A stretch of DNA of 35,881 nt from a virus. Its lineage: Duplodnaviria > Heunggongvirae > Uroviricota > Caudoviricetes. Every line of letters starts with the position of its first letter. Positions within the stretch are counted from its first letter, which is position 1. The stretch is taken from the IMG/VR virus record IMGVR_UViG_2541047915_000013; one strand, written 5' to 3'. Shown here in pieces: positions 698 to 35,428 of the stretch. Below the pieces are notes generated by a model that was not told the origin of the DNA, did no database searches, and worked only from the letters and a program-made list of their open reading frames with translations. The position numbers and the translations under genes were made by a program.

Positions 698-1060
698 GGG
701 GCTGATTCTGGATTCGACGGGATTTGCGAAACCCAAGGTGCATGCCGAGGGGCGGTTGGCCTCGTAAAAAGCCGCAAAAAATAGTCGCAAACGACGAAAA
801 CTACGCTTTAGCAGCTTAATAACCTGCTTAGAGCCCTCTCTCCCTAGCCTCCGCTCTTAGGACGGGGATCAAGAGAGGTCAAACCCAAAAGAGATCGCGT
901 GGAAGCCCTGCCTGGGGTTGAAGCGTTAAAACTTAATCAGGCTAGTTTGTTAGTGGCGTGTCCGTCCGCAGCTGGCAAGCGAATGTAAAGACTGACTAAG
1001 CATGTAGTACCGAGGATGTAGGAATTTCGGACGCGGGTTCAACTCCCGCCAGCTCCACCA
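698..1060 (+). ncRNA. ssrA: tmRNA (transfer-messenger RNA), 363 nt
   Basis: Starts GGGGCTGATTCTGGATTCGACGGG and ends CGCCAGCTCCACCA; internal tag template GCAAACGACGAAAACTACGCTTTAGCAGCTTAA (787-819) encodes ANDENYALAA-stop. Confidence 0.95.
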
Positions 1061-1061
1061 A
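1016..1061. repeat. attL core: 46-bp direct repeat formed by the ssrA 3' end
   Basis: ATGTAGGAATTTCGGACGCGGGTTCAACTCCCGCCAGCTCCACCAA is identical to 35254-35299; identity breaks on both sides. Confidence 0.85.
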
Positions 1062-1070
1062 ATAAATCAA

Positions 1071-1118: not shown

Positions 1119-1157
1119 ATGGCGACAGACTTTTGCGTCCATCTTGCCTGTCGCCAT
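1119..1157. promoter_or_regulatory. 10-bp inverted repeat upstream of the WYL-BRCT ORF (candidate operator)
   Basis: ATGGCGACAG (1119-1128) and CTGTCGCCAT (1148-1157), 19-bp spacer; AAGAGG ribosome-binding site at 1171-1176. Confidence 0.35.
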
Positions 1158-1183
1158 CTTGAAATCATGCAAAGAGGTTTCAC

Positions 1184-1666
1184 ATGGAAGAACTTCACTT
1201 TGTTTACATCAATGCAAATGGTCGTATCGGTGTTCACTCAATACAGAGCATCAGTTATAGCGAAAATCATATACAGGGCATTTGTAAGAACACCGATCGA
1301 ATAAAAACCTTCCGAAAAGACCGCATTCTTAAACAGTACGATTCACCAGAACAAGCCATTCAGGAATGCGCGTCATTCCTCCCCGAAAACTACTCACATC
1401 TCACTAAGCAGTCTGGTCCGAAAAAAAATACATTCGATGTGTGCTTCACCGGATTTAAGAAAGCAGATAAAGAAAGATTGGTTGATAAGGCGAATGAACA
1501 AGGATTAACGGTAAGAACCTCTGTAACCCAAAGCCTTCAGATGCTCTGTTGCGGTTACAATGCAGGCCCATCAAAAGTATCGGCAGCCAGGATGAAAGGC
1601 ACAATCATCATAGATGAGCCTGGCTTTATACATTTTCTTGAAACGGGTGAGATCCCAGATGAATAA
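1184..1666 (+). CDS. Hypothetical protein, WYL-like N-terminal domain fused to BRCT-like C-terminal domain (accessory gene)
   Basis: N-terminal FVYINANGRIG...RIKTFRKDRI resembles the WYL motif; C-terminal CFTGF...ERLVDKANEQGLTV...GPSKVSAARMKGTIIIDE resembles a ligase-type BRCT domain; good RBS. Confidence 0.6.
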   Translation: MEELHFVYINANGRIGVHSIQSISYSENHIQGICKNTDRIKTFRKDRILKQYDSPEQAIQECASFLPENYSHLTKQSGPKKNTFDVCFTGFKKADKERLVDKANEQGLTVRTSVTQSLQMLCCGYNAGPSKVSAARMKGTIIIDEPGFIHFLETGEIPDE

Positions 1667-22459: not shown

Positions 22460-23890
22460 TCATCTTGAAAGTATCACCCGTTCAAACAATGGCATTAATT
22501 GAGAATAAACATTATCATAATGTTCATCATTTAAAAGATGATATTTATTTTCAAGTTTGATGCTATTAAAACCATCCATGAAACTCTCATAACCAACAGT
22601 GCCAATAATAATCTGATTTGTAAGGGAAAACCCATCCAAGCATAGTTTTATAAGCTTATGCGTATGCTCTGGATCCAAATCTTGTTGCTTTGGAGAGTCT
22701 ATTACTATAGGCATATTCTCAACTGAAGAGTTGCTTTTCATAACACTAAGTAGCGCGTAGTGAAATGCAAATATACCTCGAGGACCTCGACTACCAGTCT
22801 TACCCTTAGTAATATTATTATAACTACTAAGGCCACCTACCTTTGTATTTTCGACACCAAGCTCTTTAAGAGCTTTAGCGAAATACTCTTTGAAACAGTC
22901 ATTTATTTTAACAGTTCTTTTCTTATCATTGTATACTTCTAATTCTTCTTGTAATTCTGTCAACTCGCCTTCTTTTCGACCAATCTCAACGAATAACTCA
23001 TCTAACTGTGAAACAAAAGTAGATTCAATTTCATGGTATGCAGCAGATTTAATAACATCATGAAGCGTTATTTCCGATTGAGTTTCTAAAATCAGCGCCT
23101 GCAACGCCTCTGAAGCAGCCCTTGACTCTTCTAGCTTTTGATTCAATTTAGGAATATTTTCCTCAATCTTGCTTTTCTCATCTGCAAGAACAGCAATGTT
23201 TTTGAGCATTTCATCTCTATGGTTTATATAATTATATTCATTTACTGAATAAGCAACATTATCATCTCGAAAATTCGAAATCTCAAATTCATTATCAATA
23301 ATCGCAGTTATCTCTTTGAGTTCACTCTCAAGGAAATTCTTCCTAGAATATAACCTCAAAAGATTCAATCTATATTCTGTCTGAACTAAATTCAAATTAG
23401 AATATTCATTTAATATACGTTCTAACTTTGATTTATAAAAATCCAAATCAACATCAAATAAAACCACACCAAAAGATTCATCAATCTTACTTTTGCTTCT
23501 TTTTAGAACCTTAACAAAACCATCTAACTCTGAAATTTTAACTTTAACTTCTTTGATTTTCCCTTGAACTGTGTAATATTCCTTTGGCTTAATTCCAGAG
23601 TGATAGTAAAGAATGTTTTTTTGCCATTCTGAGTACATACTCATGTTTTCGAAAGAATTTATCACCGCTTTCCATCCTTCATCCTGATCAATAAAGAATG
23701 GGGCAAACAAACAAGCAGGGTTTGCCTGAGTCGTAGCACCCGTATATTTATTATGTAATTCCAGTTTAAAACCAAATATATTTGAAACACGAGATGCTAA
23801 TGACGAAATCGTGTTATACACGACTAGATCATCATTCTTCAAATCAAAGACACCAATAATCTTTTTATAACGCAAAAAAAATAAAATCAC
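22460..23890 (-). CDS. SMC/ABC-type ATPase, C-terminal part (LmuB/DUF3732-like), separated from its P-loop by a frameshift
   Basis: Long coiled-coil region, then PIVIDSP (Walker-B-like) and DPEH (H-loop-like); no Walker A in this ORF; about 30% GC. Confidence 0.6.
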   Translation of the reverse strand: MILFFLRYKKIIGVFDLKNDDLVVYNTISSLASRVSNIFGFKLELHNKYTGATTQANPACLFAPFFIDQDEGWKAVINSFENMSMYSEWQKNILYYHSGIKPKEYYTVQGKIKEVKVKISELDGFVKVLKRSKSKIDESFGVVLFDVDLDFYKSKLERILNEYSNLNLVQTEYRLNLLRLYSRKNFLESELKEITAIIDNEFEISNFRDDNVAYSVNEYNYINHRDEMLKNIAVLADEKSKIEENIPKLNQKLEESRAASEALQALILETQSEITLHDVIKSAAYHEIESTFVSQLDELFVEIGRKEGELTELQEELEVYNDKKRTVKINDCFKEYFAKALKELGVENTKVGGLSSYNNITKGKTGSRGPRGIFAFHYALLSVMKSNSSVENMPIVIDSPKQQDLDPEHTHKLIKLCLDGFSLTNQIIIGTVGYESFMDGFNSIKLENKYHLLNDEHYDNVYSQLMPLFERVILSR

Positions 23891-24134
23891 TTTCCCCGTT
23901 ATTAATTTCCACCAGTGTAACTATATCATCTGATTTCCAAGCATCATCAAGCCTTAAATCTCCACCTAATGTGTAATAAAGACTTTTAATCAGGCTTGAT
24001 TTACCAACATCATTTGTACCATATATGAAGTTAACCCCTTCTGAAAACTCATAAGAAAAAGCTTTTCTGTCTCTTAATGAGAGTATTTTTATATTTTTAA
24101 ATTTAACGTTATTCTTCATAAGAAACATCCTCAA
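23865..24134 (-). CDS. SMC/ABC-type ATPase, N-terminal P-loop fragment
   Basis: Walker A GTNDVGKSSL; frame ends inside a T8 tract where the downstream ORF continues in the +1 frame. Confidence 0.6.
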   Translation of the reverse strand: MRMFLMKNNVKFKNIKILSLRDRKAFSYEFSEGVNFIYGTNDVGKSSLIKSLYYTLGGDLRLDDAWKSDDIVTLVEINNGESDFIFFAL

Positions 24135-25188
24135 AAGTCAACTTTATAATTGCATATATAGCAATCATAAATTTCTCTTCTTGATTTAATAAAGAGAAAT
24201 CCCCGTCCCCCGCTGCAATTGTTTTTTCGAGTGTAAAGAAGAGGTCTCGAACAGGTATCTCACGATAATGCTCTATACTCTTTAGAGCCGATTGAAATTC
24301 CAGAAAATAAAGATAGTATATTGAATTGACATTGAGCACTTTTATTGATATGCGTGTAAAAACTGATTGTAATTTAATCCCCTCATAAGGATCTGAGAAA
24401 GTACCAAGCAACATACAAACCTGTTCCCATTTTGGCGTTATTTTTATGCTTGCAATGAGTCCAGATAATAAATCAGTTACAAATTCTGAAGATATACCTT
24501 TCTTTAGTACTAAATCTTCAAAAGTTTTGATATCACTAGAAGCAACACTAACCTTCTCATTACACTTATTGATTAATAATTTAGTGAATGCTGTTGAATT
24601 AATACCATGATCATCCCCAAAGTAAGAATTCAAAAAAACTGCAACTTTCCCGTATAAATGTGAGTTAGGATCTAACAAACTAAGATCAGATGTTTTAAAT
24701 TTTATTTTATCAAGAGGAACTTCTTTTTTAGTATTTAGCTGCTCTTGAACCTTACTAATTATAATTTCCTTATGCTCATTATTAAGATCACTACCTTTTT
24801 CGTTATTATCATTTAAGAAATCGAATCCAGCATTCGATAACAGAACCATATAAATTTCGTGACCAACGAATTGATAGAAATGGTCATATAGTTTTGCAAC
24901 AAATGATTTAGGTTTAGCTTTTGTTGCGTTCACTATTGCTGCGAGTGTCCATTTACCATCTTTTTTTGTTTTAACTTGGATAAACTCAGCACTAGTCGGA
25001 GAAACAGATGAATTCAATACAAGAATATCGTCATGATATTCAAATAGAAATAAATATTTCTCCTTTTCTTTTTGTTTCTCAAGTAAATAATTTATCCCCC
25101 AAGAGGCTTGATATGAAAAGCCTCTCAACGCGTTTTCACCGCCCCGTTCTGCTTGATTTACTGTAATTAACGCATCTGATAACGCCAC
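24109..25188 (-). CDS. PD-(D/E)xK nuclease-like protein of the Cap4/DUF4297 type (LmuA-like)
   Basis: N-terminal GGENALRGFSYQ ... YHDDILVL ... EFIQVK motifs; GTG start with AGGGA ribosome-binding site; about 30% GC. Confidence 0.55.
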   Translation of the reverse strand: MALSDALITVNQAERGGENALRGFSYQASWGINYLLEKQKEKEKYLFLFEYHDDILVLNSSVSPTSAEFIQVKTKKDGKWTLAAIVNATKAKPKSFVAKLYDHFYQFVGHEIYMVLLSNAGFDFLNDNNEKGSDLNNEHKEIIISKVQEQLNTKKEVPLDKIKFKTSDLSLLDPNSHLYGKVAVFLNSYFGDDHGINSTAFTKLLINKCNEKVSVASSDIKTFEDLVLKKGISSEFVTDLLSGLIASIKITPKWEQVCMLLGTFSDPYEGIKLQSVFTRISIKVLNVNSIYYLYFLEFQSALKSIEHYREIPVRDLFFTLEKTIAAGDGDFSLLNQEEKFMIAIYAIIKLTFEDVSYEE

Positions 25189-25497: not shown

Positions 25498-25731
25498 TTA
25501 ATGCAGCCAGCTGTCGTCTTCCCACACCTTCTGCATAATTTTCATCACTTGTTTTCTTTCTTCGTCCTGTTGCAGTCCGGTCAGTTCCACACCGTTAGAG
25601 CTACCTTTGCGGATACGAATTACCGTTTTGGGATACAGGGAGCGCAGATTGCGGTAAAGCTCGGATTCAAGGGCGTCCATGGTAGACTGGCTAATCTTCT
25701 GCTCTTTATCGATCATTATTTCAATGCGCAT
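25498..25731 (-). CDS. DinI-family protein (DNA-damage-inducible protein I-like)
   Basis: MRIEIMIDKEQ...LESELYRNLRSLYP...VWEDDSWLH resembles DinI; start set at the internal ATG at 25731; the ORF is open to 25803. Confidence 0.7.
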   Translation of the reverse strand: MRIEIMIDKEQKISQSTMDALESELYRNLRSLYPKTVIRIRKGSSNGVELTGLQQDEERKQVMKIMQKVWEDDSWLH

Positions 25732-25741
25732 AAAAGTCACC

Positions 25742-25930
25742 TCAGCTGATGACATCCATTGAGCGGTTGTATTCGTGGGTTCTGATTTTTGCCATGAGTT
25801 CATCAGTCAATTCAGAAACCCACTGCAGAGCCAGCCCCTTATCTTCATCACTACACTCACTAGCCGCTACAAGCTTAAGAAAAAAATCAATGCGCTGGAG
25901 CTTCAAAGACTCCAAAAAATAGTCCTGCAT
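25742..25930 (-). CDS. Hypothetical protein, first gene of the LexA-box operon
   Basis: ATG at 25930 preceded by AGGAGG; LexA box about 45 bp upstream. Confidence 0.5.
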   Translation of the reverse strand: MQDYFLESLKLQRIDFFLKLVAASECSDEDKGLALQWVSELTDELMAKIRTHEYNRSMDVIS

Positions 25931-31293: not shown

Positions 31294-31926
31294 ATGATAC
31301 AGGTAAAGGTTGGAGAGAATACAGGGGGAAGAGAGGCTATCCATAGACTAATGGCAGCCTATGATTTCAAGTCCAGACAGCAACTTTGCGATCACTTAGG
31401 CGCATCAAAAAGTACCATGGCAAACAGATACTTAAGAGATAGTTTTCCTGCAGAGTGGGTGATTCAGTGCGCCTTGGAAACAGGAGTTTCTTTACTGTGG
31501 CTAACCACCGGACAGGGGGAGCCAGGTCCAAACATTGAACCTAAAAAAAATATCAATTCCGTGAACTCCAGCAAGGTTGTACCTCTTTCTGAACTAGTAT
31601 CTCCTGAAATTGACAAGGCGACTCTCAACGGTGGTTTATTGGTCGATGCTGGAAAAGCAATCATTGATAGCAGCATACTCCCCTCAGACTCAAGCAACCT
31701 ACTGCTGGTGACTACTTCTGGTGATTCTTATTTAATAGATCGCAACCAAACACCACCAGTAAATGGTATGTGGTTAGTCGATATTGACGGGATAAAAAGC
31801 ATTGTTAAATTGACTCGACTTCCGGGAAACAAATTAGTAGTGCATCAGGATGATTCATCGTTTGAGTGTGGCCTAGATGACATTGAGGTAGTAGGCCGCG
31901 CACTGAAAATCATTAAGAGCCTTTGA
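31294..31926 (+). CDS. cI: CI-like immunity repressor
   Basis: 210-aa protein with N-terminal helix-turn-helix-like region; co-oriented with int. Confidence 0.7.
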   Translation: MIQVKVGENTGGREAIHRLMAAYDFKSRQQLCDHLGASKSTMANRYLRDSFPAEWVIQCALETGVSLLWLTTGQGEPGPNIEPKKNINSVNSSKVVPLSELVSPEIDKATLNGGLLVDAGKAIIDSSILPSDSSNLLLVTTSGDSYLIDRNQTPPVNGMWLVDIDGIKSIVKLTRLPGNKLVVHQDDSSFECGLDDIEVVGRALKIIKSL

Positions 31927-31927
31927 T

Positions 31928-32944
31928 ATGACCATCAGAAAACAGCCGAACGGAAAATGGTTGTGTGAGTGCTATCCCAATGGACGCAATGGTAAGCGCG
32001 TGCGTAAGCAATTTGCTACGAAAGGCGAAGCCATTGCTTTTGAAAGCTTCACAATGGAAGAAGTGAATAAAAAACCGTGGTTGGGTGAAAAGGATGATCG
32101 GCGACGCCTATCAGAATTAATTGAGCTTTGGTATTCCCTGTATGGTCAGACACTCGCAGACCCCAAGCGCCTCATGGCGAAACTTAGAATTATCTGTAAT
32201 GGTCTAGGCGACCCCATCGCCTCAGAACTGACAGCCGGTGACTTTACGAAATACCGCGAAGCACGGTTAAAAGGTGACGTTCGTAACGAAGACGGCACAC
32301 TAATGTCGCCAGTAAAACCACGCACGGTGAATCTTGAGCAACGTAACCTATCATCGGTTTTCGGCACATTGAAAAAACTAGGCCACTGGTCAGCACCAAA
32401 TCCTCTCGCCGGGCTGCCAACATTTAAAATCGCTGAGGGGGAACTGGCGTTCCTGACCTCGGAAGAAATTAAACGTCTGCTAGATGCCTGCGCTGATTCT
32501 CAAAACCCCAGTCTGCTTTTGATTGCAAAAATATGCCTGGCCACCGGCGCACGCTGGAGTGAAGCTGAAAACCTGCAGGGCCATCAGTTATCTAAATACC
32601 GCATCACTTATACCAAGACGAAGGGTAAGAAAAACCGCACCGTGCCGATATCTCAAGATCTGTATGACGAACTCCCCAAGAACAGAGGGAAGCTATTCAC
32701 CCCGTGCAGAAAAGCCTTTGAACGAGCAGTAAAGCGAGCTGGCATCGAGCTGCCAGAGGGCCAATGCACTCACGTGCTACGTCATACATTCGCCAGCCAT
32801 TTTATGATGAATGGCGGAAACATACTGGTGCTGCGCGATATTCTGGGCCATGCCGATATAAAAATGACGATGATTTACGCCCACTTTTCGCCCGATCACC
32901 TTGAAGATGCGGTAACTAAAAACCCTTTATGCAACTTAAGATAG
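31928..32944 (+). CDS. int: Tyrosine integrase (P2/186 family)
   Basis: 338 aa; ...ATGARWSEA..., ...HVLRHTFASHFMMNGG... and ...MIYAHF motifs typical of P2-type integrases. Confidence 0.9.
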   Translation: MTIRKQPNGKWLCECYPNGRNGKRVRKQFATKGEAIAFESFTMEEVNKKPWLGEKDDRRRLSELIELWYSLYGQTLADPKRLMAKLRIICNGLGDPIASELTAGDFTKYREARLKGDVRNEDGTLMSPVKPRTVNLEQRNLSSVFGTLKKLGHWSAPNPLAGLPTFKIAEGELAFLTSEEIKRLLDACADSQNPSLLLIAKICLATGARWSEAENLQGHQLSKYRITYTKTKGKKNRTVPISQDLYDELPKNRGKLFTPCRKAFERAVKRAGIELPEGQCTHVLRHTFASHFMMNGGNILVLRDILGHADIKMTMIYAHFSPDHLEDAVTKNPLCNLR

Positions 32945-33324: not shown

Positions 33325-35058
33325 CTACTCAAGGAGATATTCTAACTCATCTTTTATCGGGATAATTTGCTCATAAAGTCGGTGATATGACTTCCCAATT
33401 GCGCCTCTAAATTGTATTAACTTTGGTGGCTTACTACCTATATTAATAATATGGTCTTGAGCTATACCTGGGTAGGGATCAATAAATACAATTTCAGATA
33501 TACCTAACTGATAAGCTTTTTTCGCACACAACTCACAGGGACTGGCAGTTGTATACAACTTCCCCCCCAGAACGCCAATACCACCATATTTTGCAAGTTG
33601 CAAAAATGCGTTTTCCTCAGCATGTAATGCACGTGTATGAACTTGATTACCTTTTTTCTCTTTATCAAGATCATTATGTATATCTTTAAAACAATAAGAT
33701 AAGTTCCTGCCTCTATAAATATCACCAGTTTTATCTATCGCCCTAAAATTTAAGAGTTTCTCATTAGCTTTAATTCTGAAAGAACTATTATTTCTCTCAT
33801 AATGACTGTACGTTTTTTCATCAAAATCGTTCATTAGGCCATCTAGAGATCTCATAGAGCAAGGAATCTGACCGTTGGCAACATCATTCCAACCAACTGA
33901 TTTTATTGAATTATCACCATCAGTTACTACAGCTCCCACCTGTCTAGATATACAGCCAGAGTTTAATTTTACCGTATACGCAACTTGCATAACCCTTTCC
34001 ATTGCAGTAGGTGTTATCAGACCAGGATGCTTCATCAGTGCGATGTACCACGCTAATTGTGCTTTTAAAATATTGTCATTATCAAATTCATTTTTTGGGT
34101 TAAAAATGTGTATATCTGATAGTTCAATACATTTAGTTACATTTGGATTGGTGAGATGTTTGTAAGAGTTATCACCTTTACCTGACTCTACAGAATCTAT
34201 TTCCTCTATCTGCTTTTCTGAAAACTTATGTAGTTTCCGCAAATAGTTTGTTCGATGTTCATCCGGGGCATTTATTGACATTAAATGAAATGCAGAATAT
34301 CTATCCTTAAAAAATTTTGCCTCATATGGATTTCTAATAGCATCTATGACAATTAATGCGTTATCTCTTTTGCTTTTTCTTATTAATTTAATAACCCTAT
34401 TAATAGTTTCCGGCAAATGAAAAACAGATTTAGGCATAAACTCTTTATCTTCAAAATCGACTTCAATACGCCCACGACGTCTAATTGACTTACCTGCTAA
34501 CTGATAGGCTGAAACATATAAATTTGAGTTTATCTCATTTAGTTCAGCTTTGAATTCTTTAGTAAATTTTCTAACTAACTTCAAAATTGATATAAATTTA
34601 TTAATCGTTTTTTCATCAAGCTTCAATTCACTATTATGATCAAGCAAATTCTCAATTACATTTTTAAATCTTGTCAAAATGAGATTATCTGAGAATACAC
34701 CAAAAGTTAATACAATATCTAAATGCTCTTTACTGATAGATTTATTAGATGATAGAATGAATTCAGAAGCTTCCTCAGCTGTTAACATCAGAAGATACGC
34801 TGAGATTAGGTCACTCACCTTAATTGAGTAAAAATTTTCCCAGTGATTTTCTGCGAATTTTTTAACTATATTATAACGATGGACATCCAATCCCTTGTAA
34901 AACCCCTGTAATTTACTTACATCAGGGAAGACTGTTTTTTCGTTTTCAAGAATATTAGCTGTTGTTGTGCAACCAGAACCAGTTCGACCTGTCAAACCGA
35001 CTAAAATAAACTGCCCATTTTCAAGGAAAAGCTCACTAACGAATTTTTTTTCTTTCAT
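33325..35058 (-). CDS. P-loop kinase-like / cytidine deaminase fusion protein (AvcD/dCTP-deaminase-like accessory gene)
   Basis: N-terminal P-loop GRTGSGCTT; C-terminal deaminase zinc motifs HAEENA and SPCELC; ATG at 35058; about 30% GC. Confidence 0.7.
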   Translation of the reverse strand: MKEKKFVSELFLENGQFILVGLTGRTGSGCTTTANILENEKTVFPDVSKLQGFYKGLDVHRYNIVKKFAENHWENFYSIKVSDLISAYLLMLTAEEASEFILSSNKSISKEHLDIVLTFGVFSDNLILTRFKNVIENLLDHNSELKLDEKTINKFISILKLVRKFTKEFKAELNEINSNLYVSAYQLAGKSIRRRGRIEVDFEDKEFMPKSVFHLPETINRVIKLIRKSKRDNALIVIDAIRNPYEAKFFKDRYSAFHLMSINAPDEHRTNYLRKLHKFSEKQIEEIDSVESGKGDNSYKHLTNPNVTKCIELSDIHIFNPKNEFDNDNILKAQLAWYIALMKHPGLITPTAMERVMQVAYTVKLNSGCISRQVGAVVTDGDNSIKSVGWNDVANGQIPCSMRSLDGLMNDFDEKTYSHYERNNSSFRIKANEKLLNFRAIDKTGDIYRGRNLSYCFKDIHNDLDKEKKGNQVHTRALHAEENAFLQLAKYGGIGVLGGKLYTTASPCELCAKKAYQLGISEIVFIDPYPGIAQDHIINIGSKPPKLIQFRGAIGKSYHRLYEQIIPIKDELEYLLE

Positions 35059-35253
35059 CACGTCCCACTTATGAATGCAAGAACAATTAACATATTAATT
35101 GTAATTTATTAACTAATTTTATTCTAGATACTTGATGTAATGGCGGCACTTTGGCGGCAGAGCATTAAAAACGCGTAAGACGAGCAAATACAAAATAACA
35201 CTAACACATTGTTTTCAAACATAATCTACTGTTTTTACTATAATAAAAATGGT

Positions 35254-35299
35254 ATGTAGGAATTTCGGACGCGGGTTCAACTCCCGCCAGCTCCACCAA
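35254..35299. repeat. attR core: second copy of the 46-bp ssrA 3'-end repeat
   Basis: Exact copy of 1016-1061; not a second tmRNA gene, only the terminal 46 bp. Confidence 0.85.
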
Positions 35300-35428
35300 T
35301 CATGATTGGACGGTGTAAGGACAACACCAACAAAAACAGGAAGTTAGAAGTCTCAGCAGGACACCGACCAGACGGTGAGGAGACATAAAAGGATACGCAA
35401 AGGAGCCGCGGCTCCGAAGTGAAATGAA

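Follow-up and report, generated by a model that had tools for sequence, protein, structure and literature searches.

The WYL domain is known as a sensor: it makes up one half of transcription factors, and of a few enzymes, by which bacterial immunity and DNA-damage responses are controlled. BRCT domains of the RFC1/LigA class are binders of 5′-phosphorylated DNA ends, as described for RFC1 p140, and of the 5′ junction of gapped DNA, where the Rfc1 BRCT domain sits. A third point of comparison are passenger genes that are linked to a phage repressor and protect the lysogen, such as rexAB of phage lambda and bstA of BTP1. Here we analyse a stretch of 35,881 nucleotides from a tailed virus (Caudoviricetes; IMG/VR record IMGVR_UViG_2541047915_000013; the whole stretch is referred to as the window), in which a prophage gene at 1184-1666 (+) encodes a 160-residue protein that joins a WYL domain to nothing but a ligase-type BRCT domain. 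We refer to it as the WYL-BRCT protein.

On the sensing side, it can be compared with CapW/BrxR, which have the order winged helix-turn-helix (wHTH)-WYL-WCX, and with the WYL activators DriD and PafBC. The WYL domains of CapW, DriD and PafBC are binders of single-stranded DNA (ssDNA) that signal DNA damage or infection (PMC11662680, PMC12041258, PMC11804915). In contrast, the WYL-BRCT protein has neither a winged helix nor a WCX domain, and its output domain is a BRCT domain; therefore, it cannot be a transcription factor of the CapW/BrxR type. On the output side, the C-terminal BRCT domain of LigA, the RFC1 BRCT domain and the LigB subunit of T5-like phages belong, as judged from profiles and fold, to one BRCT subclass with the WYL-BRCT protein and share a conserved TG...K phosphate pocket, but the WYL-BRCT protein lacks the adenylation domain with its KxDG lysine, the OB, zinc-finger and HhH domains as well as the clamp-loader module. 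With rexAB and bstA it has in common the position after the repressor and the expression in the lysogen, without any similarity in sequence or fold. A partial match was obtained for the PADLOC candidate system PDC-S48, in which profile positions 335-406 of 411, a BRCT-like end, align with the C-terminal 70 residues (E = 1.8e-7), whereas the other 330 residues of PDC-S48 have no counterpart. Apart from this and a weak match to SspE, no described defence component in PADLOC-DB 2.0 matched, and none did so over the full length. The same family or architecture is found in PHROG 2561, in a PGAP protein name and in Makarova et al. 2014, all of them catalogue entries only; in the literature the combination of WYL and BRCT appears once, in the architecture list of the latter paper (PMC4012209). 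The WYL-BRCT protein is thus a WYL sensor with an unusual output domain that is neither enzymatic nor a helix-turn-helix (HTH), and lies outside the known wHTH-WYL-WCX, ligase, DEDDh and PADLOC families.

Domain architecture of the WYL-BRCT protein

An AlphaFold2 model built on the family alignment had a predicted local distance difference test (pLDDT) score of 91.6 and a predicted template modelling (pTM) score of 0.52; a pTM this low at such a high pLDDT points to two domains, each of them rigid, with a flexible connection. In this model the 160 residues are fully covered by a WYL domain, a linker and a BRCT domain. A preliminary description of the locus, made from the sequence alone, had proposed an N-terminal WYL region and a C-terminal BRCT-like fold with no enzymatic domain, and the fold prediction and the profile matches of the family agree with it. 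Scans with Pfam, NCBIfam and PADLOC models found no further domains.

Residues 3-52 (1190-1339, +) are predicted to form a five-stranded Sm/SH3-like barrel, and the best solved-structure matches of this barrel in a fold search are the WYL domains of PafBC, CapW, BrxR and DriD. Sequence searches were less telling. The window protein alone gave no match to Pfam WYL (PF13280) at E <= 10, and a sequence-only comparison of the N-domain profile with the PDB returned just a faint PafBC/PafC match. Because of this faint match the WYL assignment rests on the fold search and on the Pfam matches of relatives, namely 6 of the 46 full-length homologues (best E = 1.5e-5) and, among the 57 longer members of the family, 24 (best E = 1.2e-8); PADLOC WYL models also match family members, at E = 3.7e-9. 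The basic motif that follows the WYL strand is present as K41-T42-F43-R44-K45-D46-R47-I48, in which T42 is invariant and F43, R44 and D46 are at least 90% conserved. The TFRKDRI part occupies residues 42-48, and the longer motif RIKTFRKDRI, which the preliminary description had quoted, residues 39-48. The canonical motif after the WYL strand is, as we take it, R-x-F-R-x-D-R-I. The barrel begins at residue 3, and no HTH family was matched in the Pfam scan. It is followed by two short helices (residues 55-73) and a linker of lower confidence (about residues 74-84; together 1346-1435, +), where the pLDDT falls to 68 in residues 71-80.

The C-terminal residues 85-154 (1436-1645, +) show, in the model, the order beta-alpha-beta-beta-alpha-beta-alpha of the BRCT fold. 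With Pfam BRCT (PF00533) the window protein scores 19.5 bits over residues 84-145, against a cut-off of 21.3, and the same model is matched by 40 of the 46 full-length homologues (E <= 0.1, best 2.1e-6) and by 46 of the 57 longer relatives. The family profile matches the BRCT domain of yeast Rfc1 at E = 2.8e-5 and that of LigA at 5e-5, and its top PDB matches are RFC structures, placing the domain in the LigA/RFC1 class. T89-G90, K96 and K131 make up the predicted phosphate pocket. T89-G90 and K131 are invariant and K96 is conserved in at least 90%; the former pair aligns with FTG and K131 with the lysine of AGPKK in yeast Rfc1. We presume that this pocket is equivalent to T415/G416/R423/K458 of human RFC1. 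When the invariant residues of the family are taken together, they comprise Y8, T42, T89, G90, F91 and K131.

Databases call the protein a 'DNA ligase' (PHROG 2561, phage records of RefSeq) or, for prophage Cartapus, a 'putative exonuclease protein', and weak NCBIfam matches to LigA and to a DEDDh exonuclease could be taken to back these names. The matches span only the BRCT ends of models for a 650-aa ligase and a 331-aa exonuclease, however, with 13-26 bits against cut-offs of 369-1051, and the 160 residues hold no nucleotidyltransferase or DEDD region. We therefore see next to no chance that the protein is a ligase or an exonuclease. Judged by these profile alignments, both names are misnomers carried over from the BRCT domain. 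Three specific candidates were also rejected. An identity as NAD-dependent DNA ligase fails as LigA models match over their last 70-105 positions only (11-20 bits versus cut-offs of 369-1051), a DEDDh exonuclease with BRCT (PRK06063) as the match is limited to profile positions 229-307 of 331 (26 bits versus a cut-off of 389), and a recent capture of the host LigA BRCT domain as the similarity is weak (E = 2e-4).

Gene model, selection and spread

According to the open reading frame (ORF) list and our reading of the sequence, the gene consists of 160 codons and a stop codon and starts with the ATG at 1184. The preliminary description had correctly noticed a 160-aa ORF but placed its beginning at 1119; the ATG at that position lies in a different frame, where it opens an ORF of 61 aa, and is part of a repeat element treated below. 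A Shine-Dalgarno sequence, AAAGAGG, can be read at 1171-1177 (+), 6 nt upstream of the ATG, and its counterpart AAAGGTG is kept in orthologous loci. PGAP annotates exactly 1184-1666 as coding sequence in identical genomes (WP_000391794.1), with the product name 'hypothetical protein' or 'BRCT domain-containing protein'.

The protein matches PHROG 2561 over its full length (E = 2e-77). The earlier statement that it could not be assigned to any described family is consequently only half true: beside the PHROG family there are the PGAP name, the listed architecture (PMC4012209) and a report as a prophage moron (PMC9928086), although no study on the function of such a phage protein came up in the literature. 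Seven orthologues, from E. coli, a Yersinia phage, Erwinia, Klebsiella, Plesiomonas, Tatumella and Citrobacter, have 160 intact codons. Against these, the proportion of nonsynonymous differences (pN) is about 0.19 and that of synonymous differences (pS) 0.73-0.89, the latter being saturated. On the strength of these comparisons, the gene is evidently real and under strong purifying selection.

With a threshold of E <= 1e-3, a profile search against 1.84 billion cluster representatives yielded 2718 proteins; at E <= 1e-30 there were 204, which are clusters at 50% identity. Family loci occur in many Gammaproteobacteria and in metagenome-assembled genomes (MAGs) of Alpha-, Beta- and Deltaproteobacteria type. 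When any family member is used as query, 28 of 50,697 phage records hold the full-length protein; 27 of them are P2-like and one is lambdoid, and all are temperate. In IMG/VR, a scan recovered just close relatives, located at the ends of prophages, and gave no further information on virulent phages. Among 5426 complete E. coli genomes, the gene is present in 177, the same integrase type in 219 and a P2-like D gene in 1326, and it is carried by 177 of the 219 genomes with this integrase type.

Genomic position and expression in lysogens

The window begins with smpB (1-483), followed by the gene ssrA for the transfer-messenger RNA (tmRNA; 698-1060); in an Rfam scan, tmRNA is the only family that reaches the threshold within 500-2100. 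The 3′ end of ssrA contains a 47-bp attachment (att) core at 1016-1062 (+), which recurs as an exact repeat at 35254-35300, and the two copies bracket a P2/186-like E. coli prophage of about 34 kb. Downstream of the WYL-BRCT gene and convergent with it lies ogr, encoding the late-gene activator (1693-1911, -; PGAP annotation of the identical locus and ORF list); a terminator scan placed a terminator-like hairpin between the two (1668-1685, +), and the D, U and T genes follow beyond ogr. At the other end of the prophage are a 186-type cI (31294-31926), int (31928-32944) and, between int and attR, an ORF of 578 aa with a P-loop and a dCMP/cytidine deaminase domain (33325-35061, -). As described previously, the WYL-BRCT gene is thus located between attL and ogr in an att-proximal position, facing the deaminase across attP.

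Members of the Enterobacterales lineage with ssrA as integration site invariably show the order ssrA - att - WYL-BRCT gene - ogr - D. The circular order of the free Yersinia phage MLG42 brings the components together as cI - int - attP - WYL-BRCT gene on one strand. In other relatives the usual position is directly 3′ of the immunity repressor gene, on the same strand and often between repressor and int. The gene comes straight after the repressor in Mannheimia PHL101 and Vibrio PV94; in Y. ruckeri, 8 nt separate it from a 186-type CI gene, and in Xenorhabdus the gaps in cI - WYL-BRCT - int are 35 and 3 nt. Repressor-adjacent copies also occur in Hafnia, Brenneria, Rahnella, Acerihabitans and Parasalinivibrio, while a single gene lies between repressor and WYL-BRCT gene in Serratia. 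In Pseudomonas chromosomes the gene adjoins S24-type repressors, and a lambdoid Pseudomonas phage has a leftward cro and a rightward cI followed by a small ORF and the WYL-BRCT gene. Finally, in integrative islands that are not phages it adjoins Mrr with a Dcm methylase and an integrase, an MrcB_N-HNH protein, or AbiGi. The preliminary description had regarded the gene as cargo. Within the ssrA lineage, however, it is constant, being found in 177 of the 219 E. coli genomes with this integrase type, whereas the slot across attP varies, containing the deaminase in the window, a RES-type ORF of 401 aa in Cartapus and no gene in MLG42. The WYL-BRCT gene is therefore better seen as a stable part of the lysogeny/att module.

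Expression data are available for Cartapus, a near-identical prophage of E. coli LF82 with the gene in the same place (98.8% protein identity). Misson et al. name two morons of Cartapus, one of which is LF82_783 (CARTA_32, 'putative exonuclease'), transcribed 15-fold over the prophage background in lysogeny broth (LB; PMC9928086). According to their RNA sequencing (RNA-seq) values, given as log2 expression in S1 Table, the gene reaches 6.6-6.9 in LB, 9.1-9.6 in Dulbecco's modified Eagle's medium (DMEM) and 7.6-8.8 in macrophages, compared with 5.0-5.1, 8.0-8.4 and 8.1-9.3 for cI, and the neighbouring D gene stands at about 3 (PMC9928086). The WYL-BRCT transcript is thus at least as abundant as that of cI in LB and DMEM, somewhat less abundant in macrophages, and climbs with cI from LB to DMEM. 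The accessible part of a CRISPR interference study of LF82 contains nothing on the gene. With its absence from most P2-like prophages (177 versus 1326 E. coli genomes) and its strong transcript in the lysogen, the gene has the properties of a prophage moron. The preliminary description had made its case depend on conservation and expression in related prophages, and both are found. We regard the WYL-BRCT architecture together with lysogenic expression as very probable.

These data would also suit a factor of lysogeny control that senses damage in the form of ssDNA gaps, beside or apart from RecA/LexA, and tunes prophage induction. It could act at the 5′ junctions of gaps where RecFOR loads RecA and damp spontaneous SOS/Tum induction, or its BRCT domain could signal to repressor or integrase. 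Several points speak for such a role: the gene is co-oriented with and adjacent to the repressor gene in many genera, with cI-gene-int gaps of 3-35 nt in Xenorhabdus; its LF82 transcript tracks cI between LB and DMEM; it is stably tied to the int/att module instead of being swapped; and the WYL proteins DriD, PafBC and CapW are damage sensors triggered by ssDNA. The prophage is moreover of 186 type, with a CI that lacks an S24 domain and with a DinI/Tum-like gene, and a 2026 preprint takes cI/BRCT modules of Roseobacter prophages as damage-responsive regulators, without experiments (PMC13345283). However, at least three unrelated types of neighbouring repressor (186 CI, S24/LexA-like and HTH_3) argue against a specific repressor partnership, the gene is also present in non-phage islands beside restriction and Abi genes, the lack of an HTH leaves no direct transcriptional output, and the 186-type circuit already uses Tum for SOS induction. 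On balance, we consider a role in lysogeny control, the main rival of the function favoured below, possible but rather unlikely.

Possible function in the lysogen

Our best guess is that the WYL-BRCT protein is a lysogen-expressed binder or sensor of ssDNA and 5′-phosphate DNA structures that acts in exclusion or in induction control. In line with CapW, DriD and PafBC, the WYL domain would bind nucleic acid in single-stranded form or a small anionic ligand of a related kind, and the pocket formed by T89-G90, K96 and K131 would bind a phosphate, most plausibly the 5′-phosphate at a nick, a gap or a recessed DNA end, by analogy with RFC1 and LigA. Together, the two domains could constitute a stoichiometric reader of ssDNA/dsDNA junctions, nicks and gaps. 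In the lysogen, the protein may occupy such structures on incoming or replicating foreign DNA, for instance annealed cos nicks, gaps and replication intermediates, and the occupied structures would then be barred from sealing and use or be flagged to host factors. The gene would accordingly be a passenger of the repressor operon that protects the lysogen in the manner of rexAB or bstA. Among the possible roles we favour this exclusion or defence-type function, albeit tentatively, because genes that follow a repressor classically protect lysogens and because relatives adjoin restriction and Abi genes.

A number of observations weigh against this interpretation. The protein is not basic, with an isoelectric point (pI) of 6.95 and of 5.3 for the BRCT half, which argues against avid non-specific DNA binding and leaves room for a protein or a small molecule as ligand. 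The two arginines that flank the WYL motif of CapW and contact ssDNA there (RWHVR; PMC11662680) are not kept; in a register set by eye, the corresponding residues are N28-H-I-Q-G32 (consensus xHxQG). Only the FR.DR arginines of the basic motif are kept. One WYL protein binds cyclic di-GMP instead (PMC11880434), and the ligand could likewise be something other than DNA, with the BRCT domain serving as a protein-binding module. The gene stays in place among related prophages and is not swapped, whereas defence cargo would more typically behave like the variable slot across attP, and the PADLOC match covers only the BRCT part of the candidate system PDC-S48. As the gene lies 120 nt past the very strongly expressed ssrA, read-through could supply part of the RNA-seq signal, and no transcription start of its own was found. 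In the literature we found no published binding or phenotype experiment on any WYL-BRCT member.

The relationship of the BRCT domain to the LigA/RFC1 class could alternatively point to an accessory protein for transactions of the phage genome, which would bind nicks or cos ends and aid or time sealing by LigA, or shield ends from nucleases during circularisation, integration and excision. The ligase of T5-like phages has its BRCT domain on a separate subunit that acts on nicked DNA (9hu3), one MAG contig (L035) has an NAD-ligase-like gene two ORFs upstream of the WYL-BRCT gene, and in many relatives the gene is co-expressed with int. Nevertheless, we judge this role improbable. The gene is expressed in established lysogens, where phage ends are absent, and tyrosine recombinases leave no 5′-phosphate nicks. 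Furthermore, E. coli LigA already has a BRCT domain, and most P2-like phages, including P2 and 186, do without the gene, as the E. coli counts illustrate (177 versus 1326). If the protein were such a passive DNA-binding accessory, the finding would be a modest one.

Since ssDNA is the signal through which WYL sensors control CBASS, BREX and other systems, competition for it by a free WYL domain is also conceivable, and small stand-alone WYL proteins do occur in phages. The WYL-BRCT protein might on these grounds be a counter-defence factor that masks ssDNA or DNA ends, or acts as a decoy for host immune sensors that are WYL-regulated or sense ends or ssDNA. However, the gene belongs to the lysogenic and not to the early lytic operon and is expressed in the lysogen; it is found in chromosomal islands as well, and no known anti-defence family was matched. 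We thus hold counter-defence to be quite improbable.

The locus is of wider interest: temperate phages of many Proteobacteria carry the gene along with their repressor gene, it is under strong purifying selection, and lysogens express it, the Crohn's-associated strain LF82 among them. Knowledge of its ligand and partners would show what this widespread prophage gene, now mislabelled as ligase or exonuclease, does, and would test the BRCT domain as an output of bacterial nucleic-acid sensing. A new route by which prophages protect their host or control induction is conceivable. A bolder and, in our view, doubtful extension is that the family represents an unrecognised class of enzyme-free DNA-structure sensors in immunity operons of temperate phages, be it as an exclusion protein that caps junctions or as a RecA-independent damage sensor that sets the threshold of induction, and that is elsewhere paired with the X domain of about 190 aa described below.

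Inverted repeat and probable integrase arm sites

Upstream of the gene, positions 1115-1128 and 1148-1161 form an inverted repeat (13 of 14 positions complementary, 19-nt spacing) with a rough chance estimate of 6e-4 per 100-nt stretch. The preliminary description had noticed this repeat and assigned it to a promoter. While the repeat exists, the promoter assignment is not supported: neither a scan nor inspection by eye revealed a sigma-70-like site on the + strand of 1000-1184, and relatives lack the second arm. An operator or an RNA hairpin was considered and rejected, as the second arm is missing in all seven aligned orthologous loci, the leader fold has a z-score of only -1.58 against shuffled sequences, and the conserved arm belongs to a set of TGGCGRCA repeats found on both att arms.

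Two direct copies of TGGCGRCA with 11-bp spacing are located at 1109-1116 and 1120-1127 (+) and are probable P′-arm integrase sites; the second copy forms the left arm of the inverted repeat. A third, inverted copy, TGGCGACA, at 1149-1156 (-) constitutes the right arm and, being absent from the seven aligned relatives, is lineage-specific. About 100 nt before the attR core, two direct TGGCGGCA repeats (35141-35159, +; starts at 35141 and 35152), again with 11-bp spacing, are the probable P-arm sites. The window contains 16 matches to TGGCGRCA where 3.6 are expected, and the block GTGGCGGCAAAATGGCGRCAG is invariant among eight relatives that integrate into ssrA. In the attP of MLG42 the core is flanked by the same 2+2 repeats, two after the int stop codon and two after the core and a terminator, with seven matches versus 0.7 expected. 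From this layout, the conserved TGGCGRCA elements are most likely arm-type sites of the integrase in attP.

Between ssrA with the att core and the WYL-BRCT gene, the terminator scan detected an ssrA terminator hairpin carried by the phage (1069-1096, +). Compensatory changes in its stem were seen among relatives, and the hairpin is homologous to the terminator that natively follows ssrA in strain NCTC86. The phage thus brings along the 3′ end of ssrA and a copy of the native-type terminator (1061-1110 in the window; 2490-2550 in locus L065), so that after integration the tmRNA gene is again complete, terminator included. Positions 1061-1122 are matched in 3183 of 5426 E. coli genomes. In NCTC86, the one locus inspected, only the terminator part up to about 1110 is common, and it lies at the far end of an apparent CP4-57-type island.

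Other accessory genes and associated domains

The ORF at 33325-35061 (-) combines an N-terminal P-loop, GRTGSGCTT, with a C-terminal deaminase zinc site (Pfam dCMP_cyt_deam_1, E = 1.6e-14), and we take it to resemble the deoxycytidylate-deaminase type of anti-phage defence gene. It occupies the variable cargo slot opposite the WYL-BRCT gene, where the 401-aa ORF of Cartapus is labelled 'RES/NAD+-binding'. Two further accessory ORFs lie between the portal gene and the DinI/Tum-like gene (22460-25188, -). One, of 359 aa, has a Cap4 dsDNA-endonuclease domain (E = 1.4e-33), the other, of 476 aa, has no Pfam match, and together they probably represent a defence cassette within a P2 hotspot. The adjoining 101-aa ORF (25498-25803, -) contains a DinI-like domain (E = 5.8e-23) and likely serves this 186-like prophage as its SOS antirepressor, of the Tum type.

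In many relatives outside the P2 group, a recurrent X domain of about 190 aa is fused to the WYL-BRCT protein or encoded beside it. Its motif reads G[YF]AxGW.FAV...ALDIKLT...WTQG..F.F..GD, and it had no match in Pfam, in PADLOC or in sequence searches of the PDB; a six-frame search of the window and of P2-like loci found no copy. Examples are located at L024 5443-6489, L025 5242-6456, L027 6502-7098, L045 2174-3163 and L060 4587-5036 (example proteins P0152, P0178, P0189, P0132 and P0169). Among the best 150 family matches, 57 are longer proteins of 230-710 aa, and the X domain was confirmed in the handful that were checked. On the short MAG contig L035, the NAD-dependent-ligase-like gene mentioned above (249-1919, 556 aa) was read by eye. 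A conserved ORF of about 80-100 aa, beginning with MSLTKPNQ-L-RDL..., stands directly in front of or behind the WYL-BRCT gene in Pseudomonas loci and in the lambdoid Pseudomonas phage, downstream of an S24-type repressor (for example L146 3144-3443; also L047, L054 and L056) and may encode a partner protein.

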